A DNA stretch of 64,000 bases from Verrucomicrobiia bacterium (GCA_036502245.1 DASXYX010000028.1:96637-160636), one strand, 5' to 3'. Shown: positions 5,505 to 64,000, numbered from the stretch's first letter. Made by a program: numbers and translations. The notes: generated by a model not told the origin, from the letters alone.

Positions 5505-6542
5505 ATGAGTAAAAAAATTATCATCAAGAATAAAGCCGGCAAGAACGGCATCGGAGCCGGCGTCTGGAATCTGGGGGCGGGACGCGATCCGTTCGGCGGG
5601 CCGACGCGTGAAGAAATTCCCGTCCTGGACCGTATCGAATTGCTGGCTGGCGCAGGCATCACTTACATCGAAGCGCACGACGTGGAAATCTCCTCGCGCG
5701 ACGTTCCGAAGGCCAAAGTGTTGATGAAGAAATACGGCGTCAAGATGGGCATGTACACGCCGTCGTTCTTCGCCGATGCCATTTTCAAAGACGGCGCGAT
5801 GACCAGCAACGATCCTGCCGTGCGCAAGCTCGCGCTCGCGAACGCGTTGAAGGCAGTGGATGTGACCGTGGCCCTCGGCGCGGAAGTCATGGTGTTCTGG
5901 AACGGGCGCGAAGGTTTTGATTTCATGCTCGCCAAGAACGGGCAGGATTCGTTCCGCCGGATGGTCGAAGGCTTCACTGCGGTAGGCCAGTATGCGTTAC
6001 GAAAATACGGCAAGCGTTCGCCGAAATTCGCGATCGAGCCGAAACCGAACGAGCCGCGCGCCAATATGTATTTGGGCAACGTCGGCGAGGCTCTGTATCT
6101 CATCAGCCGCCTTGATCCCAGGGTGCAGCATCTGTTCGGCCTCAACCCGGAGACGGCGCACAGTCGCATGGCCGGTTTGGATTATTTGTGGGATGTCGAG
6201 TTGTGCCTGGAGGCCGGTAAGCTGTTCCATATCCATCTCAATTCGCAGGACACGACGCGATACGACCAGGATTTGCCGTTCGGTTATACGGAGCCGTTGA
6301 AAGATTTGGCGTTGTGCGTGGCGTTGCAGGACGCCAGGTGGCCGGGTATTTTGGCGTTCGACGTGAAAGCGCCGCGCACCGACCGGCAGGAGGACATTGC
6401 GGACATCTTGCACACGAGCGCATCGAACCTGGAGCGGCTCTGGAACCGGGCGTCGAAAGTGAACCGCAAAAAGATTCTTGAATTTCGCAAGACGGGGCGT
6501 TACACAGCTCTGGCCGGTTACCTGGCAGAATGTCTCTACTAA
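5505..6542 (+). CDS. xylA: Xylose isomerase, short class-I-like
   Basis: 346 aa from ATG 5505. Motifs GRDPFG, FAIEPKPNEP, NPETAH, RYDQDLPFG, FDVKAPR align to actinobacterial-type XylA. The ORF-track start at 5469 overlaps the GH10 end and is less likely. Confidence 0.85.
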   Translation: MSKKIIIKNKAGKNGIGAGVWNLGAGRDPFGGPTREEIPVLDRIELLAGAGITYIEAHDVEISSRDVPKAKVLMKKYGVKMGMYTPSFFADAIFKDGAMTSNDPAVRKLALANALKAVDVTVALGAEVMVFWNGREGFDFMLAKNGQDSFRRMVEGFTAVGQYALRKYGKRSPKFAIEPKPNEPRANMYLGNVGEALYLISRLDPRVQHLFGLNPETAHSRMAGLDYLWDVELCLEAGKLFHIHLNSQDTTRYDQDLPFGYTEPLKDLALCVALQDARWPGILAFDVKAPRTDRQEDIADILHTSASNLERLWNRASKVNRKKILEFRKTGRYTALAGYLAECLY

Positions 6543-8224: not shown

Positions 8225-10933
8225 ATGAGACTGATCTATTACACTGCCATCGGACTATTTTGTCTGCTCTCAAACGTCGCCGCGTTGGCCGATGAGACCT
8301 GCGTCTCGTGCGATAAACAGATCACCGTCACCGGCCAGTTCCAGCACCGGCGCGCGTTCGGCGTGGCGACCATCCAGGGCGAGCTTTCGCGCTGGGGCGA
8401 TGCGTTCCGCGAGGAGATTTACGGCACGAACTTCACCATCACCATCGCCAACCTGCCGGCGGGAAGTTATACGGCATACATCGGATTTGCGGAAGTGGAT
8501 TACACCAACACGGGTGACCGCGTGTTCGACATCACGGGCAATGGCCAACCCATCGCCACCAATTTTGACATCGTCGCCGCGGCAGGTGGTTCGGGCAAAG
8601 TGTATTTCATCACTAACCAAATTGATTTTGCAGGAGAATCAATCGGCGGACCGATGACGTTCAATTTTGCGGGCCGCGTTGGCGACGCCAAAATGAATTC
8701 GTTCGAGCTGCGCGATGCCAGCAAGCAATCGATTGTGTTTATCCGCGCGGCGGATCTGCTGGACGTCGGCGACAAAGCCGCGCTGGCGCCGCCCGTGGTG
8801 AACGGGCCGGAGATATGGAAAGACCCGGCGCAGCCCGTTGACGCGCGCGTGCAGGACCTGATCAGCCGCATGTCGCTCGCCGAAAAAGTGCAGCAGATGC
8901 GCAATAATGCCCCGTCCATCCCGCGACTTGGCGTGCCGGCTTACAATTATTGGAGCGAATGCCTGCACGGCGTGGCGCGTTCGGGCGTGGCCACGGTGTT
9001 TCCCCAGGCCATCGGCATGGCCGCTACGTGGGACACCCCGCTCATCCATCAGGAGGCGCATGTCATTGCCGTGGAAGCGCGCGCGAAGAACAATGATTAT
9101 CGCGCCAAACACGACGGCAATACTGTCCAGTACTACGGCCTGCATTTCTGGACGCCGAACATCAACATTTTCCGCGACCCGCGTTGGGGCCGCGGCCAGG
9201 AAACCTACGGTGAAGATCCGTTCCTGACCGGGCAACTGGGCGTCTCGTTCATCCAGGGTTTGCAAGGCGACGACCCGAAATATCTCGAAGCCTACGCGTG
9301 CGCGAAACATTACGCCGTCCACAGCGGACCGGAACCGCTCCGTCATGAATTTGATGTCTCTCCGCCTGAGCGCGATCTTTACGAGACCTACCTGCCCCAG
9401 TTCGAAGCGGCGGTGCGCGAAGGCCATGTCGGCGGCGTGATGGGAGCCTACAATGCGGTCGAAGGCAAACCCGCCTGCGCGAGTCCGTTTTTGCTGACCG
9501 ACCTATTGCGCAATCAATGGGGATTTGACGGTTACGTCACTTCCGATTGCGGCGCGATCTTCGATATCTGGGCTAATCATAAATTTGTCAACTCACCCGA
9601 AGAAGCCGCCGCCGTGGCAGTGAAGGCGGGCGACGACCTTTGCTGCGGCACGGATTACGATGCGCTGGCGCGCGCCGTACAGGAAGGCCTCATCACGCAA
9701 CAGGAGATCGATACCGCCCTTGCGTGGTTGCTCAAGACGCGCTTCCGCCTCGGCATGTTCGACCCACCCTCAATGGTTCCTTACGACCAGATTCCGGCAT
9801 CGGAGAATAATACGCCCGCGCACCAGGAACTGGCGCTACAGGTCGCGCGGGAATCGATGGTCTTGCTAAAAAACAATGGCCTGTTGCCGCTCAACCGCAA
9901 CAAAATCAAACGCATCGCTGTCATCGGCATCAATGCCGATTCCACGAACGTGTTGCTCGGCAATTACAACGGCACGCCGTCAAACCCGATCAGAATTCTC
10001 GATGGCATTCGCGCCGTCGCCGGTGTAGACGTCCAGGTGGATTATGTGCGCGGCTGTCCTTTGGCCACGCATACCAATGAGACCTATCAGCCGGACGACG
10101 ATTTCACCAATGCCGTCAACGCTGCCGCTCAAGCCGACGTAGTCATTTATGTGGGCGGCATTGACGCCCATCTGGAAGGCGAAGAGATGCGTGTTTATCT
10201 GGACGGATTTAACGGCGGTGACCGCACGCGCATCGAATTGCCCACGTCACAGGAAACGCTGTTGAAAGCGTTGCAGGCGACCGGCAAACCGGTGGTCTAT
10301 GTCAATTGCAGCGGCAGCGCCATGGCCATGCCGTGGGAAAAGAAATTTCTTCCCGCCATTTTGCAAGCGTGGTATCCCGGCGAGGAAGGCGGACGCGCCG
10401 TGGCCGAGACCTTGTTCGGCGATTACAATCCTGCCGGACGTTTGCCGGTAACATTTTACCAGTCCACTGCCGATCTGCCGGATTTTGAAAACTATTCCAT
10501 GAGCAACCGCACCTACCGTTATTTCACCGGCAAACCGCTCTTCGCCTTCGGCCATGGATTGAGCTATACGAAGTTCGCTTATCGCCATGCCAAGTTGGCG
10601 GACAAAACAATCAGCTCAAACGGCACACTCACGGTAACGTTTGACGTCAAGAATACTGGCAACCGCGACGGTGATGAAGTGGCGCAAGTTTATTTCCGCC
10701 ATGTGAATTCTGCCGTGCCGCAACCCCTGGAGGCGCTATGCGGCTTCCAACGCGTCCACCTGGCCGCTGGCCAAAGCCAGACGGTCACCAACGAAATCCC
10801 CGTCGAACGATTCCGTTATTGGGACACAACGAAACAACAATACGTTGTTGAGCCGGGCAAATACCAGTTGCTCGTGGGAGCAGCGTCCGATGATATCCGG
10901 GAACGGTTGGCGTTTAGTGTGGCAGGGCAATGA
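8225..10933 (+). CDS. Exported GH3 beta-xylosidase/beta-glucosidase with N-terminal malectin-like carbohydrate-binding domain
   Basis: Hydrophobic N-terminus (MRLIYYTAIGLFCLL). Malectin-like segment YTAYIGFAEVDYTNTGDRVFDITGNG...FDIVAAAGG. Then a GH3 core (SLAEKVQQM, KHYAVHSGPE, GYVTSDC) and an Fn3-like C-terminus. Confidence 0.9.
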   Translation: MRLIYYTAIGLFCLLSNVAALADETCVSCDKQITVTGQFQHRRAFGVATIQGELSRWGDAFREEIYGTNFTITIANLPAGSYTAYIGFAEVDYTNTGDRVFDITGNGQPIATNFDIVAAAGGSGKVYFITNQIDFAGESIGGPMTFNFAGRVGDAKMNSFELRDASKQSIVFIRAADLLDVGDKAALAPPVVNGPEIWKDPAQPVDARVQDLISRMSLAEKVQQMRNNAPSIPRLGVPAYNYWSECLHGVARSGVATVFPQAIGMAATWDTPLIHQEAHVIAVEARAKNNDYRAKHDGNTVQYYGLHFWTPNINIFRDPRWGRGQETYGEDPFLTGQLGVSFIQGLQGDDPKYLEAYACAKHYAVHSGPEPLRHEFDVSPPERDLYETYLPQFEAAVREGHVGGVMGAYNAVEGKPACASPFLLTDLLRNQWGFDGYVTSDCGAIFDIWANHKFVNSPEEAAAVAVKAGDDLCCGTDYDALARAVQEGLITQQEIDTALAWLLKTRFRLGMFDPPSMVPYDQIPASENNTPAHQELALQVARESMVLLKNNGLLPLNRNKIKRIAVIGINADSTNVLLGNYNGTPSNPIRILDGIRAVAGVDVQVDYVRGCPLATHTNETYQPDDDFTNAVNAAAQADVVIYVGGIDAHLEGEEMRVYLDGFNGGDRTRIELPTSQETLLKALQATGKPVVYVNCSGSAMAMPWEKKFLPAILQAWYPGEEGGRAVAETLFGDYNPAGRLPVTFYQSTADLPDFENYSMSNRTYRYFTGKPLFAFGHGLSYTKFAYRHAKLADKTISSNGTLTVTFDVKNTGNRDGDEVAQVYFRHVNSAVPQPLEALCGFQRVHLAAGQSQTVTNEIPVERFRYWDTTKQQYVVEPGKYQLLVGAASDDIRERLAFSVAGQ

Positions 10934-10934
10934 T

Positions 10935-11032
10935 CCAACCCTTTCAGGGTCGAAAATCATGCGGACAATTAACCCAGCGTAGGCGCGAGCGCCAACGCTG
11001 GGCTATATGATTTCAACCCCGTTGGGGTTGAA
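10935..11032. repeat. REP cluster (trailer-type module, solo copy)
   Basis: Three hairpins: CCAACCC-TTTCAG-GGTCG (degenerate), CCCAGCGT-N14-ACGCTGGG, TCAACCCC-GTT-GGGGTTGA. The same module occurs at 11672-11768 and 24362-24460. Confidence 0.75.
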
Positions 11033-11106
11033 AGGCGACTTTAACCAAAACTTCTACTTAATTTCCAAATACTCAAACATGAAGTAGCGAAACGTATTAA
11101 ACCTTT

Positions 11107-11206
11107 GGCAATCCCAAAGGGATTGCAATAATATAGCCCGGCGTTGCGAGGAACGAGCTACGCCGGGTTACGTCCAAAGCAAATATTCAACCCTGAAAGG
11201 GTTGAA
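11107..11206 (+). repeat. Structured ~100-bp leader of RAYT copy 1 (three hairpins)
   Basis: GCAATCCC-AAA-GGGATTGC; CCCGGCGT-N15-ACGCCGGG; TTCAACCC-TGAAA-GGGTTGAA. Near-identical copies at 23798-23897 and 24528-24627. Confidence 0.75.
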
Positions 11207-11215
11207 TCAAAGTTT

Positions 11216-11671
11216 ATGCCGCAGTCCTTATCAAATATTTTGGTGCATGCCGTATTTTCCACCAAAGATCGGCGTCCGTTTATCCGGGATAAAGGCTTAC
11301 GCGGTGAATTGCACAAATACATCGGCGGCATTTTGAATCATCTCGATTGTTATCCACTCATCGTTAGCGGTGTTGAAGATCACGTGCATCTGCTCTCCAC
11401 CCTCTCCCGTACTTGTGAACCGGCAGAAATGGTCAAAGAGGTCAAACGTGGCTCATCGTTATGGATTAAGCAAAGGGATGTAAAGCTGCAGGATTTTGCA
11501 TGGCAAAGTGGTTACGGGATCTTTTCCATCGGGGTTTCCCAAATTGAACCAGTCAGTAATTATATTGCGGGGCAGGAAGAACATCACCGGACAGTTTCAT
11601 TTCAGGATGAATTGCGGAAATTATTGCGCGAACACAAAATCGAATTTGATGAACGGTATGTCTGGGACTGA
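11216..11671 (+). CDS. rayT: REP-associated tyrosine transposase (RAYT; IS200/IS605-like Y1/HUH transposase fold), copy 1
   Basis: 151 aa from ATG 11216. HUH motif (DHVHLL) and YIAGQEEHH catalytic-Tyr motif. No tnpB partner. Flanked by REP hairpins. The longer ORF-track start at 11144 runs through the repeat leader. Confidence 0.9.
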   Translation: MPQSLSNILVHAVFSTKDRRPFIRDKGLRGELHKYIGGILNHLDCYPLIVSGVEDHVHLLSTLSRTCEPAEMVKEVKRGSSLWIKQRDVKLQDFAWQSGYGIFSIGVSQIEPVSNYIAGQEEHHRTVSFQDELRKLLREHKIEFDERYVWD

Positions 11672-11768
11672 TTCAACCCTTTCAGGGTTGAATTTATTCG
11701 CAACCTGAACCCAGCGTAGGCGCAAACGCCAACGCTGGGCTTTATTATTTCAACCCCGTTGGGGTTGA
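11672..11768. repeat. REP cluster (trailer of RAYT copy 1)
   Basis: TTCAACCC-TTTCAG-GGTTGAA; CCCAGCGT-N14-ACGCTGGG; TCAACCCC-GTT-GGGGTTGA. Confidence 0.75.
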
Positions 11769-11790
11769 CGACCGTCCGTTTCACAATTTA

Positions 11791-13129: not shown

Positions 13130-13510
13130 CTGAATCCTGAAAGGATTCCCATCATTCAGCCCAGCGTAGGCTCGCAGACTCGCCAACGCTGGGTTTGGTG
13201 GAGAAAAAGATCAACCCCAACGGGGTTGTATCGCCAATGGGCACGAATGGATTCAACCCTTTCAGAGACCTCTGCAAAAGGGGTAGCGCAGGTTTCCTAA
13301 CCTGCTGTATCGCCGACTTCCAAGTCGGCAGAGCGTGGAAACATTGGGAAACCAGCGGATTGGGAAATCCGCGATACAAGTCTGCGCTACAATAAGGTGT
13401 TTTGCAGAGGTTTCTTTCAGGGTTGAATTCATGGCGTCATCACCCCAGGGCAGCTCGTTCCTCGCAACCTTTGGGCTGAATGATTCAATCCCGTTGGGAT
13501 TGCTGAACAG
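13130..13510. repeat. Composite REP cluster (BIME-like) including a nested insertion
   Basis: Degenerate trailer module at 13130-13240 (CCCAGCGT..ACGCTGGG; TCAACCCC-AAC-GGGGTTG). Split TTCAACCC/GGGTTGAA REP at 13251-13430. Inverted degenerate RAYT-leader copy at 13440-13505 (..GCTCGTTCCTCGCAAC..CAATCCC-GTT-GGGATTG). Confidence 0.7.
13266..13414. mobile_element. 149-bp non-coding foldback (MITE-like) element inserted in the loop of a REP hairpin
   Basis: 12-bp perfect terminal inverted repeats ACCTCTGCAAAA (13268-13279) / TTTTGCAGAGGT (13400-13411). Flanking TTTCAG duplicated at 13260-13265 and 13415-13420. Inner stem GTAGCGCAG / CTGCGCTAC plus three internal hairpins. Confidence 0.6.
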
Positions 13511-14680: not shown

Positions 14681-14860
14681 TAGAGCGTTTTAAAAAATAG
14701 TGTGGCCGTTCGGAGCGAGGATTTTTGGTGTTTTGGCGAGGCTTTGGCGAAGGAGCATGTTTGAAAACCCTGTGACTGAGCCGAAACGAAGCCAAAACCC
14801 AAAAAGACCGCTTCCTCTCCTCCTCCCCCGAATGGCTACAATATTTTTTAAAACGCTCTA
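14681..14860. mobile_element. 180-bp MITE-like foldback element
   Basis: 33-bp terminal inverted repeats TAGAGCGTTTTAAAAAATAGTGTGGCCGTTCGG / CCGAATGGCTACAATATTTTTTAAAACGCTCTA, 30 of 33 complementary. A second internal complementary block (TTTTTGGTGTTTTGGC / GCCAAAACCCAAAAA). No ORF. Begins and ends with TA. Confidence 0.55.
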
Positions 14861-19442: not shown

Positions 19443-19507
19443 CGGGGAGAGTTTATTTCGGACGAGCGGGTTATACGAGTCTGAAAATGCGCCTTTCCAT
19501 GGTCGGA

Positions 19508-19528
19508 GGGACGAGTTACACGAGTCCC
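19508..19528 (+). repeat. REP unit GGGACGAG-TTACA-CGAGTCCC (family 2), downstream of RAYT-2
   Basis: Imperfect 21-nt palindrome. Inverse-orientation copies at 20113-20133 and 221-241. A degenerate copy at 19461-19482. Confidence 0.6.
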
Positions 19529-19555
19529 TGAATTTTTTTCGAAGCTATTCAAAAC

Positions 19556-20047
19556 TCAAGACGGCTCATGCCATTGGAGCGCATTAAGTTCACCTTGATA
19601 TGGCCAATCCTGCCAGCAGCCTGCCAAACCAGCTTTTACAGGATTTTCGAGCGTATATAGCCATTTTTGATGATAGCTCTCACCACTGCGCAGTTGTCGG
19701 TCAAAAAAATCTTTTTGCCAAATCGGTTTTTCAAGCGGGCGTGGCCAGTGACGGGTAACCTCCGCACGCCAAAACTCCATCCATCGTTTGAGCGGTGTAA
19801 AAGGCACTTTCAGCGGGGCACAAAAGAAATGGACATGATCCGGCATTACGACATAACGCCCAATAATCCAATGATCCGCCTTGCGCCATGATTCAACAAG
19901 TAACTGATGGATGCGAGGATTTGTCAGCAATGGCCGTTGTCTAGCAACCTTTAAACTAACAAATTGAATTATTGTCTGATTGGAAATTTTCAACGGAGAC
20001 AGGTGTGGCAATTGCTTTCGACCCGGTTCCTTTGAAGGCTCATTCAT
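19556..20047 (-). CDS. Divergent REP-associated tyrosine transposase-like protein (Y1/HUH), family 2
   Basis: 163 aa from ATG 20047. HUH motif (PDHVHFF) and YHQKWLYTLENP Tyr motif. Flanked by inverted GGGAC..GTCCC REPs. The ORF-track N-terminal extension to 20218 overlaps the aroC start and a REP. Confidence 0.85.
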   Translation of the reverse strand: MNEPSKEPGRKQLPHLSPLKISNQTIIQFVSLKVARQRPLLTNPRIHQLLVESWRKADHWIIGRYVVMPDHVHFFCAPLKVPFTPLKRWMEFWRAEVTRHWPRPLEKPIWQKDFFDRQLRSGESYHQKWLYTLENPVKAGLAGCWQDWPYQGELNALQWHEPS

Positions 20048-20112
20048 TGGCTGTGAGGAATTATATAAACCCAATCGGTAGTCAATCAATTTTGGAATAT
20101 TTGATTTGATTT

Positions 20113-20133
20113 GGGACTCGCATAGCTCGTCCC
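20113..20133 (-). repeat. REP unit (family 2), upstream of RAYT-2, inverted relative to 19508
   Basis: GGGACTCGCATAGCTCGTCCC. Its reverse complement GGGACGAGCTATGCGAGTCCC matches 19508-19528 at 18 of 21 positions. Confidence 0.6.
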
Positions 20134-20211
20134 TCCGAATGATGGCGCCGCAGTGTGTCCGTCCGGTAAGGGAGATTTGACCATTCGACCCATTTTTTGC
20201 ATCATTGAGGC

Positions 20212-23792: not shown

Positions 23793-23797
23793 GTTTT

Positions 23798-23897
23798 GGC
23801 AATCCCAAAGGGATTGCAATAATATAGCCCGGCGTTGCGAGGAACGAGCTACGCCGGGTCACGTCCAAAGCAAATATTCAACCCTGAAAGGGTTGAA
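23798..23897 (+). repeat. Structured leader of RAYT copy 2
   Basis: Same three hairpins as 11107-11206, with single-base differences. Confidence 0.75.
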
Positions 23898-23906
23898 TCA
23901 AAGTTT

Positions 23907-24362
23907 ATGCCGCAGTCCTTATCAAACATTTTGGTGCATGCCGTATTTTCCACCAAAGATCGGCGTCCATTTATCCGGGATAAAAGCTTACGCGATGAAT
24001 TGCACAAATACATCGGCGGCATTTTGAACCATCTCAATTGTTATCCACTCATCGTCGGAGGTGTTGAGGATCATGTGCATCTGCTCTCCACCCTTTCCCG
24101 AACCTGTGAACCGGCTGAAATGGTGAAAGAAGTCAAACGCGGATCATCGTTATGGATCAAGCAAAAGGATTTAAACCTGCAGGATTTTGCATGGCAGAGT
24201 GGCTATGGAATCTTTTCCCTCGGAGTTTCCCAAATCGAACCAGTCAGTAATTATATTGCAGGGCAGGAAGAACATCACCGGACAGTTTCATTCCAGGACG
24301 AATTGCGGAAATTATTGCGCGAACATAAAATCGAATTTGATGAACGGTATGTATGGGACTGA
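23907..24362 (+). CDS. rayT: REP-associated tyrosine transposase (RAYT), copy 2
   Basis: 151 aa. 8 amino-acid differences from copy 1 by manual alignment (G27S, G30D, D44N, S51G, R87K, V89L, K90N, I105L). Same HUH and Y motifs. Confidence 0.9.
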   Translation: MPQSLSNILVHAVFSTKDRRPFIRDKSLRDELHKYIGGILNHLNCYPLIVGGVEDHVHLLSTLSRTCEPAEMVKEVKRGSSLWIKQKDLNLQDFAWQSGYGIFSLGVSQIEPVSNYIAGQEEHHRTVSFQDELRKLLREHKIEFDERYVWD

Positions 24363-24460
24363 TTCAACCCTTTCAGGGTTGAATTCGTTTGGAACCTGAA
24401 CCCAGCGTAGGCGAGAACGCCAACGCTGGGCTATATGATTTCAACCCCGTTGGGGTTGAA
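24362..24460. repeat. REP cluster (trailer of RAYT copy 2)
   Basis: TTCAACCC-TTTCAG-GGTTGAA; CCCAGCGT-N14-ACGCTGGG; TCAACCCC-GTT-GGGGTTGA. Confidence 0.75.
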
Positions 24461-24527
24461 GGCCAATTACGTTAGTGCTCCCCCATTATATTATTTCGTC
24501 AAGACTTGAAGATTCAGAAATGTTTTT

Positions 24528-24627
24528 GGCAATCCCAAAGGGATTGCAATAATATAGCCCGGCGTTGCGAGGAACGAGCTACGCCGGGTCATGTCCAAAC
24601 CAAATCTTCAACCCTGAAAGGGTTGAA
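24528..24627 (+). repeat. Solo RAYT leader (third copy, no transposase gene behind it)
   Basis: GGCAATCCCAAAGGGATTGC..CCCGGCGT..ACGCCGGG..TTCAACCCTGAAAGGGTTGAA, followed directly by the 3' end of the convergent gene at 24660. Confidence 0.7.
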
Positions 24628-24659
24628 TCAATTTCATCAACAACAGCAAACCTCCCCTA

Positions 24660-35514: not shown

Positions 35515-36141
35515 TCACCAGTCCTTGATGACTTGATTTTGCGGCGGTTGCTGATTTCCCTTTGGCCCCATTTGCAGATATTGCTCGTTTTCCTTTTGCG
35601 CGTCCAATAATCGCTTGGCGTCTTCCGCCGACATCATGTTCGCCTGCTGTTGATTCTGATCAGCCTGCTGCGCCTGCTGGCCTTTTTGTTGTTGGTTCTG
35701 CTTCGCCTGATTTGGTTGATTCTGCTGCTTTTGACCCTGCTGTTGTTGATTTTTTTGGTTTTGCGACTGGTTCTGCTGGTTCTGTTGCGATTGCTGATTC
35801 TGTGATTGTTGCTGTTGGGACTGGTTCTGCTGAGATTGATTCTGTTGCGATTTATTTTGCTGGCTCTGCTGGCTCTGGTTTTGATTCTGCTGATTTTGCT
35901 GGTTCTGTTGATTCTGTTGGCTTTGGGACTGCTGCTGTTGCTTGAGTAATTGCTCCAGCTTTTTCAATTTGTCGTCGTCGGGGTAGAGCTTCAAGCCCTT
36001 CTCCGTCCTGTCCAGTGCCGCGGGGACGTTGTTGGAAATATAAAGCCGCGCGCCGCCGTTGAAATAATCGTCAGCGGTCTGCGCGTCCGCGGCCATGGAG
36101 GCCAACAGGAGATTAAGGCTGATGAGGTGTCGAAATGTCAT
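35515..36141 (-). CDS. BatC-like exported TPR protein with long Gln/Asn-rich low-complexity region
   Basis: Signal peptide (..LLLASMAADAQT), one TPR-like unit, then about 100 residues of Q/N/S repeats. Last gene of the Bat operon; overlaps the batB end by 29 nt. Confidence 0.65.
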   Translation of the reverse strand: MTFRHLISLNLLLASMAADAQTADDYFNGGARLYISNNVPAALDRTEKGLKLYPDDDKLKKLEQLLKQQQQSQSQQNQQNQQNQQNQNQSQQSQQNKSQQNQSQQNQSQQQQSQNQQSQQNQQNQSQNQKNQQQQGQKQQNQPNQAKQNQQQKGQQAQQADQNQQQANMMSAEDAKRLLDAQKENEQYLQMGPKGNQQPPQNQVIKDW

Positions 36142-59927: not shown

Positions 59928-61619
59928 ATGAAAATCTCTTCGATAAATTTAAAAAGGTTCAAGGAGATCGCCGCCCTGCTCTGGAAATACGGCCATTCGG
60001 ACCTTGTTCGTCAGATGAATTTTGGCGATGAATTGGACGCCGAATTGCGCGAAGTCAAAACTTCCCCGTCCGGCAAAGCCTCGCCCGAAGAGCTGGCTGA
60101 TGACCTGGAAGCCATGGGCCCCACGTTCATCAAGATTGGCCAACTGCTTTCCAGCCGCTCGGACCTTTTGCCGCCCGCTTATCTCGAAGCGTTGGCGCGA
60201 CTGCAGGACAACGTAAAACCGTTCTCCTTCGAAGAAGTCGAGCAGATCATTTTGTCCGAGCTGGGCGTTCGTGTCTCCAAAGCGTTCTCGGATTTTAATC
60301 CAAAACCGATCGCCGCCGCGTCTTTGGGACAGGTTCACGGCGCCGCGTTGCGTGATGGGCGACAGGTCATCGTCAAAGTGCAGCGCCCGGACATCCGCAA
60401 GCAGATCGCCGCCGATTTTGAAGTGCTTTCGCAGATCGCAGAACTTCTCGATACGCATACTGAGTTCGGAAGGCGTTACCGTTTTGTGGAAATGCTCGAA
60501 GAATTTCGCGTCACCATCCAGCAGGAGCTTGATTACGAGCGCGAGGCCCAAAATCTCGTCATCCTGTCCAAAAACCTGGAGGAATTCGACCGCATTCGCA
60601 TTCCCCAACCCGTTGATGATTTCACCACCCGGAGCGTCTTGACCATGGATTACATCCAGGGCAGAAAAATCACCGCGCTTTCGCCATTGACGCGCCTCGA
60701 TACGGACGGCAAACCGCTCGCCGAGGAGTTGTTTAAGGCCTATCTGAAACAGATCATGGTGGATGGGATGTTTCATGCCGATCCGCATCCTGGAAATGTT
60801 TTTCTGACGGACGACGGGCGCATTGCCTTGCTTGATCTTGGAATGGTCGGGCATCTCTCGCCCGGATTGCAGGAAAATCTCTTGAAGCTATTGATGGCTG
60901 TTGGCGAAGAGAACAGCGAGATGGCCGCGGACATCGTGACTCAAATCAGCGAAGTGAGCGACGACTTCGATCGCGTCGAGTTTCACCGGCGCCTCGCCCG
61001 CATCATGACCTTGCAACAAAATCAAAGCCTGGAACATTTGAATGCCGGGAGGGCCTTGATGAAAGTCAGCCGCGCGGCAACCGATAGCGGGCTTTATGCG
61101 CCCAGTGAATTGACGCTCCTGGGCAAAACACTCCTGCATCTCGATGAAGTCGGAAAGATCATTGACCCTGAATTCGATCCTTTCGCTTCGATCCGCCGCA
61201 ACGTGCCCTCGTTGGTCGCGCGTCGCGCGCAAAAAACTCTCACGCCCGGAAATCTGTTCAGTTCGATGTTGGAGATGAAAGACTTCGTCGCGGGCCTGCC
61301 CCGCCGATGCAATCGTTTGATGGACGCCCTCACCAATTCCGAACTGGAGGTCAAAATCAAAACTGTGGACACCGCCACCCTGGTGGAAGGCTTTCAAAAA
61401 ATTGCCAACCGGATCACCGCAGGCATTCTTCTCGCATCGTTGATCCTGGGAGCCTCTCTCCTCATGCGCGTGCAAACTTCCTACGAAATTTTTGGTTATC
61501 CCGCGCTGGCCATCGTTTGTTTTCTCTTTGCCGCCGCCGGCGGCCTGTGGCTGCTCTTCAGCATCTTCTTCCAGGATGAAAAGATCAAAAAAAGTAAAAA
61601 GCCACGTCTGAAGAGTTAA
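59928..61619 (+). CDS. ABC1/UbiB-family atypical kinase
   Basis: ..KIGQLLSSRSDLLPPAYLEALARLQD.., ..AAASLGQVH.. , ..FHADPHPGN.. motifs. Two C-terminal TMs. Confidence 0.9.
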   Translation: MKISSINLKRFKEIAALLWKYGHSDLVRQMNFGDELDAELREVKTSPSGKASPEELADDLEAMGPTFIKIGQLLSSRSDLLPPAYLEALARLQDNVKPFSFEEVEQIILSELGVRVSKAFSDFNPKPIAAASLGQVHGAALRDGRQVIVKVQRPDIRKQIAADFEVLSQIAELLDTHTEFGRRYRFVEMLEEFRVTIQQELDYEREAQNLVILSKNLEEFDRIRIPQPVDDFTTRSVLTMDYIQGRKITALSPLTRLDTDGKPLAEELFKAYLKQIMVDGMFHADPHPGNVFLTDDGRIALLDLGMVGHLSPGLQENLLKLLMAVGEENSEMAADIVTQISEVSDDFDRVEFHRRLARIMTLQQNQSLEHLNAGRALMKVSRAATDSGLYAPSELTLLGKTLLHLDEVGKIIDPEFDPFASIRRNVPSLVARRAQKTLTPGNLFSSMLEMKDFVAGLPRRCNRLMDALTNSELEVKIKTVDTATLVEGFQKIANRITAGILLASLILGASLLMRVQTSYEIFGYPALAIVCFLFAAAGGLWLLFSIFFQDEKIKKSKKPRLKS

Positions 61620-61978
61620 TCTCCCCGATACACCGCCCGTGCGGTGCAAGTCTCTGCCACCACCACTTCAGTCAACAACGGCAGTTTCGGCTTCAACTTC
61701 TTCCAGATCCAAACCGCGATGTTTTCGCTCGTCGGATTTTCCAGGCCGGGAATCTCATTTAGATAATAATGGTCCAGCTTCCCCCAAATCGGCCTGAAGG
61801 CTTCCGAAATGTCCGCGTAATCCATCAACCAGCCGAGTTTCTTATCGCATTCCCCCGCCACCACGATCTCCACCTTGAAACTGTGGCCGTGTAATCGACG
61901 GCACTTGTGCGCTTTGGGCAGATGCGGCAGCAAATGCGCCGCCTCAAATTGAAACGTCTTTCGTAATTCCATTTTCAT
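61616..61978 (-). CDS. queD: 6-carboxy-5,6,7,8-tetrahydropterin synthase (PTPS family)
   Basis: 120 aa. ..FEAAHLLP....KC.RLHGHSF.. zinc/catalytic motif. Confidence 0.92.
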   Translation of the reverse strand: MKMELRKTFQFEAAHLLPHLPKAHKCRRLHGHSFKVEIVVAGECDKKLGWLMDYADISEAFRPIWGKLDHYYLNEIPGLENPTSENIAVWIWKKLKPKLPLLTEVVVAETCTARAVYRGD

Positions 61979-63336
61979 AATTCAATATCGGTCCAGGTGA
62001 TCAAGTCGCCGAGCGCGGGACGGCCATCATGTCGCCATGTCAGTGGCGGATTTTGCATTTGTCCGAGCGGACACACCCGTGTCACGCCCCAGCGCGCCAA
62101 TTGCAGGCCAAGTTTGGAAACGTGTTCCTCCGGCGCGGCGATGCCCACCGTCGAAACTTGCCCGCGAAGGGCATCGGCATTCTCCAATGCCACTTTTAAA
62201 TCAGAGACCGGCTTCACGTAAATAAATCGGTTCAGGCAGGAGAGTTGAAACCGCGCGTCTGCCTCAAACACCACCGTCCATGCCGTTGAATCTTTGCTGC
62301 ACCAGTGCTGCGTGTGTTCCGGCGCATGCGCGGCGCGAACTTCGTAAACTCCGCGACGCGTGGCTATCGCCGCCGATTCCTCCGCTGAAATCTCACCGCG
62401 CGGCTCGTGCGCCTCGCGCCTCTCCAGTTCTTCCGCCAATAATTGTCCGAAATGTTCCGGCGAAATCTCGCCGCCCGATTGCACGTAGATGACGTGCGGC
62501 GAAAGACAGCCCTGCTGGTTCCACGCCACCACATCATCTACTGCCGCGGCAATGATCTTCTTCGCGCGCGCGCCATATAAAACGTCCGCCGCAACATATC
62601 CAAAACTCACGCGATGCCCATAGCCGACAAATCGCGCCTTGAGCGGCACCCGCTTGCGAATGGCGTCCAACGTTTCGTCACTGCCGGTCGCCGTCACACA
62701 ATTGGCCTCGGTGAACAATGCGTTCTCCAGTTCAATGCTCCCTCCACGCCATTCGGCGATTTCCAGGCACGCACCGAGCTTTCGGTCCGCATCATAAATT
62801 GAATGCGCGAATAATCGCGGTAACAGCGAAGTGCCCGTGCCGCATTTCAAAAATTGCGCTGAGCGCGTCAGCAGGCCGAAAACCATGGATGTCAGCGCTG
62901 CATTCGGAATATTCCCGGCGCAAATATGCACGAGAAATTCCGGCGCATTCGCCGTGGCCGAGCGCGATGTTTTCTCCTCCACACCAGTCGCACAAACTTC
63001 GTCCAGCCGTTTCGCATCGCCCAGTTCCTGGATGAGCAGCGATTGAAAATTTTCCCGGGTCAATTGCTTGAAGAAACTATCCAATCCGCGCTCCAGCGTC
63101 GCGCGCGAAAACCCCGTGGCCTTTGCATTCTCCAATGCGAATCTCCGGAACGAAAACTCCGGTTCCAGCCAGTGTTCCGCGACATCGCTCAAGAGTTTCA
63201 CCAAACTTTGCGTCGAACGACCTGCCAGATACTGCTCGCGATTCCGCTTCAACGTTTGGCACGCCTCCACGATCATCGCCGGCGACAACGTGGCCTCCGG
63301 CGGCAGGTCAGCGAGAAAATAGTTGGGTAGATTCAT
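61975..63336 (-). CDS. LuxC-family acyl-CoA reductase
   Basis: 453 aa. ..CAGNIPNAALTSMV.. and catalytic-Cys context ..WNQQGCLSPH.. typical of LuxC-like reductases. Confidence 0.85.
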   Translation of the reverse strand: MNLPNYFLADLPPEATLSPAMIVEACQTLKRNREQYLAGRSTQSLVKLLSDVAEHWLEPEFSFRRFALENAKATGFSRATLERGLDSFFKQLTRENFQSLLIQELGDAKRLDEVCATGVEEKTSRSATANAPEFLVHICAGNIPNAALTSMVFGLLTRSAQFLKCGTGTSLLPRLFAHSIYDADRKLGACLEIAEWRGGSIELENALFTEANCVTATGSDETLDAIRKRVPLKARFVGYGHRVSFGYVAADVLYGARAKKIIAAAVDDVVAWNQQGCLSPHVIYVQSGGEISPEHFGQLLAEELERREAHEPRGEISAEESAAIATRRGVYEVRAAHAPEHTQHWCSKDSTAWTVVFEADARFQLSCLNRFIYVKPVSDLKVALENADALRGQVSTVGIAAPEEHVSKLGLQLARWGVTRVCPLGQMQNPPLTWRHDGRPALGDLITWTDIEL

Positions 63337-63340
63337 AGCA

Positions 63341-64000
63341 TCATGCGGTCATCAATGAACAACCGCGCGCCTCGGCCAGTTTCGCCCGGCCAATCAGTTC
63401 AAATCCGTCGCCACGACGAATAGCCAAATCCTCCGTCTGTATTGCCGCCACGGAAAACACATTCGCCAGATCAAAAATCCGTATCAGTCCAGTCTCACCT
63501 TCCGCAACCTCTCTCCCCGTCTCTGGCGATATGATTTGCACCCGTGCCCAGGCTGGGAAATGAAATATCCTCGGCTGATGAGAAGACGCTCCTTTTCCAT
63601 GAGCCGGCTGCATGCTTCCGCGAGGTTGTGGAGTGCGCCAGTCCTCTGGCGCTTTTAGAGTACCTGTCATGTTTGAAAGCGGTCCCGATTTATCGGGACC
63701 GCACTCCAAGACGCTATCGCGATGGTTGGAGGTTTTTTCCAAATTGGAATCGTATGCCTGCGAACTCAGTTCGCTCATACCGTACTCGCAAATAATATCC
63801 TCTGCCGGGACGCCAAGATATTCGGTAATCAACGCATGCAACTCCGTTTTCGGCATCGTTCGCGACCGGTTCTTATATCCGCCCGTCTCCATCACTCGCG
63901 AGCCATTCGACAATTGCAACCGAAGGTCTTTCTCCGCCAGATAATCAACCAGGTGAACGAACGAAAATGCCGTCCCGACGAGCAGAAAGGCTCTGGGGTC
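63341..64000 (-). CDS. LuxE-family acyl-protein synthetase/adenylating enzyme (5' end outside the window)
   Basis: The frame stays open to the window edge (..PRAFLLVGTAFSFVHLVDYLAEK..). METGGYK, EYGMSELSSQAY and C-terminal ..GFELIGRAKLAEARGCS motifs. Carries an extra ~55-aa segment (see findings). Confidence 0.85.
   Translation of the reverse strand, partial: DPRAFLLVGTAFSFVHLVDYLAEKDLRLQLSNGSRVMETGGYKNRSRTMPKTELHALITEYLGVPAEDIICEYGMSELSSQAYDSNLEKTSNHRDSVLECGPDKSGPLSNMTGTLKAPEDWRTPQPRGSMQPAHGKGASSHQPRIFHFPAWARVQIISPETGREVAEGETGLIRIFDLANVFSVAAIQTEDLAIRRGDGFELIGRAKLAEARGCSLMTA
63629..63708. repeat. Palindromic REP-like element inside the luxE-like coding sequence
   Basis: Outer stem TGGAGTGCG / CGCACTCCA. 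Inner hairpins GCGCCAG-TCCT-CTGGCGC and GGTCCCGAT-TT-ATCGGGACC. Confidence 0.6.

Follow-up and report, generated by a model that had tools for sequence, protein, structure and literature searches.

A luxE-like acyl-protein synthetase gene of a soil Verrucomicrobiia bacterium, which lies at the far end of the 64,000-nt stretch of DNA analysed here (GCA_036502245.1, DASXYX010000028.1:96637-160636; "the window" in what follows), contains an in-frame insert of 59 codons made up of palindromic repeats of a family otherwise found mainly between genes. The short loop of the enzyme in which the insert sits has been filled, in related species, with many other repeats of unrelated sequence. Judging from the conservation of the gene and from a structural model, we consider it quite likely that the insert is a tolerated, in-frame insertion of an element resembling a REPIN (a hairpin-forming doublet of repetitive extragenic palindromic, or REP, sequences) or a bacterial interspersed mosaic element (BIME), located in a permissive loop of an enzyme that is still functional. 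A preliminary description made from the window alone had already suggested a LuxE-family gene interrupted in frame by a REP-like palindrome, with the strand left implicit. This was borne out on the minus strand by matches to the LuxE family (PF04443) and to a LuxE structure (PDB 7XC6_E), by an intergenic copy of the element with 74% identity, and by the absence of the insert from the homologues.

The luxE-like gene and its insert

Only the 3' part of the gene is contained in the window. The full open reading frame (ORF) was obtained from an identical contig of a JGI metagenome (3300036780, Ga0376652_0000101, 190,664 bp; referred to as L001), where it extends over 445 codons (L001:8659-9996) and is intact. 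The 219-residue fragment encoded in the window matches PF04443 (LuxE) in Pfam with 28.8 bits against a cutoff of 24.9; it barely exceeds the threshold, as repeat inserts lower profile scores. A profile built from 71 homologues matched LuxE in 7XC6_E over nearly its full length at E = 1.6e-18. The motifs GGYKN, IGR and RGCSL of the protein are invariant columns and are the equivalents of the catalytic K238 and R355 and the acylated C364 of P. phosphoreum LuxE (PMC9157457), and the alignment with homologues indicates that all the invariant residues of the family are kept. The homologues (n = 3596) are all Verrucomicrobial, mostly from metagenome-assembled genomes (MAGs) labelled Verrucomicrobiae or Limisphaerales, and the identical 445-aa protein is recorded at NCBI as HEY3761155.1 under the title "MAG TPA: Verrucomicrobiae bacterium".

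The insert sits between the invariant GMSELSSQAYD and the nearly invariant RxFHFPxWAR (here RIFHFPAWAR). On the minus strand, the translation of 63341-64000 includes ...EYGMSELSSQAYD-[SNLEKTSNHRDSVLECGPDKSGPLSNMTGTLKAPEDWRTPQPRGSMQPAHGKGASSHQP]-RIFHFPAWARVQIISPETG..., the bracketed part being the 59 residues of the insert. Photobacterium LuxE (7XC6_E) has about 8 residues at this place and the shortest Verrucomicrobial homologues have 6, in good agreement with the spacing of about 10 residues given in the preliminary description; the coordinates it gave for the extra segment, 63572-63748, were exact, and its estimate of about 55 residues fell short of the count of 59. None of the other homologues among the 3596 matches searched has the segment, and in a clustering of about 15 billion proteins at 90% identity the 445-aa product forms a cluster of its own. 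Relatives sharing this insert, which were sought in the 90% cluster and the 3596 matches to measure selection on the insert itself, were not found. The closest relative found (L083), whose flanks are 88% identical in amino acids and 81% in nucleotides, carries between the corresponding codons an unrelated palindromic insert of 54 residues, and differing loops are found in all seven of the relatives nearest to the window gene.

The element consists of two REP units in inverted orientation, with their tails pointing inward and with small hairpin modules on either side (Table 1). The nested palindromes were confirmed at the coordinates first assigned to them: the outer stem pairs TGGAGTGCG (63629-63637) with CGCACTCCA (63700-63708) at 9 of 9 positions, and the stem of unit A, GCGCCAG/CTGGCGC (63635-41/63646-52), is paired at 7 of 7 positions around a 4-nt loop. 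The stem of unit B, GGTCCCGAT/ATCGGGACC (63681-89/63692-700), lengthens to 10 bp as GCGGTCCCGA-TTTA-TCGGGACCGC (63679-63702). For the 201-nt region the folding energy is -68.2 kcal/mol, as compared with -52.4 +/- 4.2 kcal/mol for its shuffles (z = -3.8; 0 of 200 shuffles equal), and the loop DNA alone gives z = -5.3 against +0.4 for a coding control of the same length in luxE. No intrinsic terminator or promoter was found within the insert. As had been claimed, the frame is kept with no stop codon, here through the full 445 codons; of its possible frames, the insert itself is free of stops in just two, the one used and one antisense.

Table 1. Features of the luxE-like gene, its insert and the adjoining genes, in window coordinates
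Feature	Position	Strand	Remarks
luxE-like gene, 3' part	63341..64000	minus	219 codons + stop; runs past the window end
In-frame insert	63572..63748	minus	177 nt = 59 codons (SNLEKTSN...GASSHQP); delimited by alignment with homologues and L083
Element core	63587..63721		REP doublet (two inverted REP units) and one adjacent module; homologous to L001:4013-4142
REP unit A	63618..63656	plus	head CCGCGAGGTTGTGGAGTGCG, hairpin GCGCCAG-TCCT-CTGGCGC (63635-63652), tail TTTT
REP unit B	63675..63721	minus	head GCGATAGCGTCTTGGAGTGCG, variant hairpin GCGGTCCCGA-TAAA-TCGGGACCGC (63679-63702), tail TTTC
Nested palindrome	63629..63708		80 nt; outer 9-bp stem TGGAGTGCG/CGCACTCCA from the two unit heads, both unit hairpins inside
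Flanking imperfect hairpin module	63572..63606		CGGCTGATG...CATGAGCCG; partly common to the intergenic copy; from fold and alignment
Flanking small palindromes, other insert edge	63704..63749		CTCCAA...TTGGAG (63704-63731) and TTCCAA-A-TTGGAA (63737-63749); from sequence and fold
luxC-like acyl-CoA reductase gene	61975..63336	minus	PF05893 LuxC, 238 bits; intact; 4 nt downstream of luxE; operon partner
PTPS-like gene	61616-61978		downstream of the luxC-like gene; from gene calls

With its frame intact and its catalytic residues kept, the gene looks functional, and two further lines of evidence point in the same direction. Compared with L083, the flanks of the insert have a ratio of nonsynonymous to synonymous substitution rates (dN/dS) of 0.06 at a dS of about 1.1. 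An AlphaFold2 model of the 219-aa window fragment, made with the 71 homologues, has a per-residue confidence (pLDDT) of 80-96 for most of the flanks, and values below 50 with no secondary structure for fragment residues 83-134. Since the flanks are folded and the insert falls below 50, the segment is best seen as a probably disordered surface loop; the structure prediction proposed in the preliminary description thus came out with the insert as a loop between folded parts. The ordered part of the model matches adenylate-forming enzymes, although with a fold-search TM score of about 0.27 only, which is low because the query is a fragment with a disordered third.

It is quite improbable, in our estimate, that the insertion has inactivated the enzyme and that the gene is a young pseudogene whose frame stays open by chance. 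Such a reading gains some ground from the position of the insert, since 59 residues are added next to the active-site region of an adenylate-forming enzyme, shortly before the part that makes contact with LuxC in 7XC6, and from its being unique to the lineage. Chance is a further point in its favour: about 9% of composition-matched random 177-nt sequences are stop-free and one third of lengths are multiples of three, so that about 3% of random insertions of this size would stay open. There is also a relative, L022, whose loop contains two stops. However, the reading is at odds with the complete ORF and its intact catalytic and invariant residues, with the low dN/dS of the flanks, with the open frames of all the further repeat-derived segments of the same gene (described below), and with the intact luxC gene downstream. 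It is also at odds with the 81 of 82 orthologues in which the loop is open, with lengths of 6-63 residues and unrelated content, which means that the site tolerates long inserts. Of the two options first put forward, a repeat exapted as a surface loop or a disrupted gene that happens to stay open, a loop is therefore favoured by the ORF, the catalytic residues, the dN/dS, the orthologues and the model. The word "tolerated" is supported for it, and "exapted" goes beyond the evidence.

It is scarcely credible, on the other hand, that the segment is missing from the mature protein, whether because it is excised as an intein, a self-splicing intron or a ribozyme, or because ribosomes skip it by translational bypass. 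The segment is highly structured, and a CTGATGAG motif (63575-63582) together with GAAA resembled a hammerhead core, but a search of Rfam (4227 families, E up to 10) found no ribozyme or intron, 177 nt is too short for a group I or group II intron, Pfam finds LuxE alone in the fragment with no Hint/intein domain, and the sequence belongs to an intergenic repeat family. The hammerhead idea was rejected, as the Rfam search with E up to 10 over 63300-64000 returned two meaningless weak matches, to JPX_2 and MicL; at gathering thresholds, Rfam gave only a tRNA in the whole window.

The same luxE gene contains three further in-frame segments derived from repeats, all of them open and all past the window end (L001:8698-8793, 9076-9135 and 9292-9351). 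The N-terminal one holds a palindromic insert (VGDDVRSLTS...EPPNVGSYD; L001:8709-8782) with a hairpin of -33 kcal/mol, which has relatives both at the matching site in other genomes and elsewhere. The other two are a tandem repeat of the heptamer TTGCCGA and a low-complexity run of the PRPQTQDP type. Among the 71 full-length homologues compared, the 445-aa protein is the most "decorated" one.

A dispersed family of palindromic repeats

Apart from the element itself, no copy was found within the 64-kb window by a pattern search allowing 3 mismatches or by blastn-short. Same-family intergenic copies are found 4-6 kb past the window end on the same contig. The ftsA-ftsZ spacer (L001:4013-4142) is 73.9% identical over 138 nt to 63587-63721 (blastn, E = 5e-16), and single REP units are located at L001:5518-5544 and 5579-5602, in the spacer between ftsZ and the Met-tRNA-synthetase gene. 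The copies read in the same genome thus amount to one doublet and two single units in two intergenic spacers, in 10 kb beyond the window; the portion of the source genome read is about 74 kb. The likeness first drawn between the insert and the intergenic REP-like elements of the window holds for the style of clustered hairpins, but the repeats within the window belong to other sequence families. Strong hairpins elsewhere in the window are almost all intergenic.

The units of the family have a common design, consisting of a head TTGGA[G/C]TGCG (TTGGAGTGCG), a variable hairpin that starts at the GCG of the head, and a tail CGCTTT. Identical copies of 24-27 nt of unit A were found at L001:5579-5602, L001:4056, L006:4975 and L010:64, and units and doublets are also present in L003, L006, L008, L010, L026, L039, L067 and others of the 80 related genome loci that were fetched. 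The same inverted arrangement as in luxE is seen in 16 other doublets among these loci. When units were defined by head and tail alone, 38 of 41 had a perfect stem of at least 6 bp, drawn from 12 stem sequences; it is thus the hairpin itself that is conserved, and not its sequence. A metagenome scan found the hairpin of unit B, GGTCCCGAT...ATCGGGACC, with the same head and tail in contigs such as L087 and L106, the latter carrying the same unit heterodimer as the luxE element, and by this comparison the variant hairpin is a real subfamily. The search for further palindrome copies that had been proposed at the outset was thus answered by the doublet on the same contig and by units in related genomes and metagenomes. 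As judged from the loci compared, the repeat superfamily is dispersed, mainly between genes, in this and related Verrucomicrobiae (Limisphaerales-like) genomes.

A second intragenic case was seen in the locus L057, where a MutY-like ORF of 468 codons (L057:16499-17902, minus strand) carries in its C-terminal domain an in-frame doublet (FGVRWQSAATTPLFDCGQNFQSGVALRFPPQS) that belongs to the REP superfamily of the luxE element, together with other repeat-like segments. The case is in line with the over-representation of REPs reported for DNA-repair genes (PMC3733652).

The repetitive nature of the element also raises the question of an assembly chimera, in which repeat-induced misjoining during metagenome assembly would have placed the element in luxE. 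We hold this to be very improbable, even though one independent assembly does break inside the element. This Logan assembly of another run (SRR11833492; L002), of the same strain, has a contig that ends (at L002:1) inside REP unit A, exactly at a 31-nt stretch shared with the intergenic copy. Such a break is expected of a de Bruijn graph at a repeat, and it supports the repetitiveness of the element. From inside the element to beyond luxC the sequence of L002 is identical, which independently confirms the junction of the element with the 3' part of luxE and, for that junction, rules out an assembler-specific chimera. Further points against a chimera are that the conserved flanks resume exactly, and in frame, on either side of the insert, that the same protein is recorded from two sources, and that dozens of other MAGs, some of them long-read, carry repeats at this site. 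L002 is at the same time an example of how such repeats fragment short-read assemblies within genes.

Recurrent insertion at one loop

The comparison with 82 species-level relatives puts the insert in a wider setting. The length of the loop ranges from 6 to 63 residues among them, and clustering by DNA similarity gave 36 classes for the 75 loops amenable to parsing. Loops of at least 22 residues are strongly palindromic, with z < -2 in 36/72 loops as compared with 4/72 control segments, and with z down to -10 for the most extreme predicted structure. The classes recognised among these long loops are VTSDEWRVTG...SRHxSPVTRH, GAPASRRRV...LAGxTPALP, GARVCDPQ...AAHRAALR, ELERRSPTRR...LKRELQ...GSETGAPS and LPHPGPLPKERE...PLPEGEGQGEG. 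Loops of 11-18 residues, for their part, are mostly 4-6 copies of 7-nt tandem repeats, e.g., GAATCCA, CATCCTC, AAAATTC or GAAGTCA. Most of the loop classes have copies elsewhere in the fetched loci, and are thus dispersed repeats too.

The distribution of these classes follows the relationships of the hosts poorly. Just 7 of the 75 loops share their class with the nearest neighbour by flank sequence, and on a neighbour-joining tree of the flanks the 36 classes come with 56 changes, a figure to be taken qualitatively because the flanks are short (147 aa) and highly conserved, which makes the tree weak. Between fixed anchors, the loop varies from 8 to 64 residues, as against 12-35 residues at three other variable sites of the protein, which likewise hold repeat-derived sequence. 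By these comparisons, the site is an insertion hotspot rather than a family feature. The preliminary description would have taken segments of similar length in homologues as a sign of a family feature; several relatives do have 46-63 residues at this position, but their sequences are unrelated to the insert and are themselves dispersed repeats.

The single relative whose loop is not open, L022, has two stops in it (L022:10235-10303; RW-stop-G-stop-RV...) between perfectly conserved flanks. They may reflect a genuine disruption of recent date, or else indel errors that compensate each other in this MAG, which is a long-read one.

In about 25 orthologues the loop is made of 4-6 tandem 7-nt units (GAATCCA, CATCCTC, AAAATTC, GAAGTCA or GAAGTGC), and the same heptamers are present elsewhere in those genomes; the loci include L009, L010, L013, L016, L018, L031, L032, L036, L047, L059, L067, L077, L079 and L081. 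Heptamer loops could conceivably act as slipped-strand on/off switches, since the change of one unit shifts the frame. It is also worth pointing out that several "binchicken" MAGs titled "uncultured Bifidobacteriaceae bacterium" carry a Verrucomicrobial-type luxE with typical Verrucomicrobial repeats, and that other such records are titled Candidatus Sulfopaludibacter, Methylomirabilota or Angelobacter. The taxonomy of the records looks unreliable for such loci (among L006, L012, L015, L024, L037, L043, L065, L071 and L073).

The recurrence leads to the question of whether the loop is something more than a permissive place. We leave a small chance that the stretch from SSQAYD to FHFPPW is a genuine hotspot beyond permissiveness, either by its DNA capturing repeats, where a resident hairpin or 7-nt repeat would attract the next element or stall replication, or by selection of a structured or flexible segment, for pausing, for mRNA processing before the LuxC-binding segment, or as a linker. 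If this were true, selfish repeats would be the raw material for a functional, fast-evolving protein or RNA module. In its strict form, in which the palindromes are selected for a function, the idea appears unlikely to us. The function could be that of a structured mRNA segment (one that makes translation pause between folding units, serves as an RNase site, or stabilises the message and so tunes the luxE:luxC ratio) or that of a long flexible linker near the LuxC interface. It would explain why so many lineages have gained an insert at this site, and it fits with the recurrence of structured DNA at one position with a range of lengths far above that of the other variable sites, with the strength of the predicted structures, and with the loop directly preceding the LuxC-contacting segment. 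Yet some orthologues make do with 6-10 unstructured residues and many have unstructured 7-nt repeats, and an essential function of the loop is disfavoured by these short, unstructured loops. Conservation of the content is lacking, as is phylogenetic coherence, the elements are dispersed intergenic repeats of an ordinary sort, no Rfam family or terminator-like signal was found, and permissiveness together with a high repeat load accounts for the pattern unaided. The observations are compatible with pure permissiveness, with site-targeting (e.g., insertion into a resident hairpin), and with selection for a structured or flexible segment.

Mechanism, known systems and significance

The steps by which a tolerated insertion would arise can be proposed as follows. 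These genomes seem to carry a heavy load of several REP-like families, whose elements would insert widely. In the present case, a non-autonomous palindromic mosaic built around an inverted REP doublet would have inserted into a short, structurally permissive loop of LuxE, possibly mobilised by a REP-associated tyrosine transposase (RAYT). With a length that is a multiple of three and no stops in frame, it would be translated as a 59-residue, probably disordered surface loop, presumably neutral to an enzyme that stays functional. Coding insertions of this kind may survive only in permissive loops, where length and frame keep the ORF open, and frame-breaking variants would be removed by selection. 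Permissive loops may then rapidly gain and exchange repeat-derived sequence, with unrelated palindromes and 7-nt repeats hitting or overwriting the same loop repeatedly in relatives.

Several points weigh against this account. The tolerance of the insert is deduced from sequence conservation and a model, and the dN/dS value averages over a long history (dS of about 1.1) and would be compatible with a very recent inactivation. No direct repeat that could be a target-site duplication was seen around the insert on inspection, and no empty-site allele was seen, so that the precise ends of the insertion are putative, as is its mechanism. Of the 177 nt of the insert, the outer 20-40 nt are outside the match to the intergenic copy, and may be remnants of an older loop or repeat. 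The count of copies of the family, and their division into intergenic and intragenic ones, comes from approximately 74 kb of the source genome. Finally, no transposase linked to the family of the luxE element was found in the small portion of the genome covered; a motif scan of all the loci gave no RAYT-like ORF beyond the one in the window, which is associated with another REP.

This RAYT-like ORF is located at 19556-20050 on the minus strand and has the motifs VVMPDHVHFF and PIWQKDFFDRQLR. It scores 77 bits against NCBIfam NF047646 ("REP-associated tyrosine transposase"), for which the cutoff is 80, and Pfam has no match for it. It is flanked by inverted copies of the different REP family (GGGACGAG...CGAGTCCC), namely TCGGAGGGACGAGTTACACGAGTCCCTGA at 19503-19531 and GGGACTCGCATAGCTCGTCCCTCCGA at 20113-20138. 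A third copy of the flanking repeat is found at 218-246, and the arrangement at 19503-20138 is REPtron-like. There are also intergenic hairpin clusters of other families (TTCAACCCTGAAAGGGTTGAA, CCCAGCGTAGGCGCGAGCGCCAACGCTGGG and TTCAACCCCGTTGGGGTTGAA) at 10926-11210, 11664-11769, 13247-13432 and 23869-24637, and a 300-nt block duplicated at 96% identity (11104-11403 and 23795-24094). An inverted repeat at 14681-14860, with 33-nt arms that are 91% complementary and 114 nt apart, has the architecture of a miniature inverted-repeat transposable element (MITE). The 300 nt at 35650-35949 are degenerate CTG/TTG-rich short repeats with 12 overlapping 51-nt copies, and probably encode a low-complexity segment, which is rich in Gln/Asn when read from the opposite strand.

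In-frame intragenic palindromic repeats are, by analogy with published cases, an already known kind of event, which includes REPs in Opitutus terrae. Among the closest analogues are the Rickettsia palindromic elements (RPEs; Ogata et al. 2000). In PMC10969869 and PMC3733652, RPEs are described as dispersed palindromic repeats of about 100-150 bp, often in frame in unrelated housekeeping or metabolic genes, where they add a peptide at positions compatible with the fold and the host gene stays functional. The insert in luxE resembles them as an in-frame palindromic insert in a metabolic gene, a resemblance in function only. It differs in belonging to another phylum and in being a doublet of short REP units with variable hairpins, rather than one family encoding a conserved peptide; here, moreover, one site has been colonised by many repeat families in orthologues.

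The REPs tagged by GTAG or CGTC (Di Nocera et al. 2013) are short stem-loops, mostly arranged as inverted dimers and mostly intergenic (PMC3733652). A minority of them are contained entirely within ORFs, to which they contribute, as dimers or clusters, 20-82 residues (43-82 for clusters); the highest intragenic count of the GTAG type was reported for the Verrucomicrobium Opitutus terrae, and in recB of two Xanthomonas species different REPs were found at roughly corresponding positions (PMC3733652). In these REPs the tetranucleotide stands unpaired next to one end of the stem-loop, the stem measures 8-9 bp and opens with A/T pairs, and the CGTC families have a CCA tail (PMC3733652). The units described here are different: they are without GTAG, CGTC is present in unit B alone and 7 nt from the stem, the stems start with GCG, and the tail is TTT.

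As in REPINs and BIMEs, which are REP doublets mobilised by RAYTs, two inverted REP units are separated by a short spacer, a larger hairpin is possible, dispersed singlets and doublets are seen across the loci compared, and a RAYT-like gene is found in the same genome. REPINs are, however, extragenic by definition and tied to a RAYT that has copies of their own REP on its flanks (Bertels and Rainey 2011; PMC3116915, PMC3337134), whereas the luxE copy is intragenic and the RAYT-like gene in the sequence read has the other REP. MITEs such as ERIC, BOX and the Anabaena MITEs form in-frame fusions as well (PMC10969869). The luxE element shares with them the character of a small non-autonomous repeat in an ORF that is read through in frame; neither terminal inverted repeats matching an insertion sequence element nor, on inspection, a target-site duplication were detected for it.

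A single insertion of this kind is more ordinary than the repeated colonisation of one loop. Repeat-derived inserts such as these inflate the counts of "hypothetical" peptide diversity in metagenomes. The luxE gene is a clean, well-delimited case, outside Rickettsia and the Proteobacteria, in which selfish palindromic DNA contributes to the coding sequence of a conserved enzyme. The relatives add to it that, over an order of soil Verrucomicrobia, dozens of repeats have independently come to occupy one loop, and that the frame was almost always kept. Together they offer a natural experiment on the absorption of mobile DNA by permissive loops, on the rate at which such segments turn over relative to the host gene, and on how repeat families, including 7-nt tandem repeats with possible frameshift switching, shape coding sequence.

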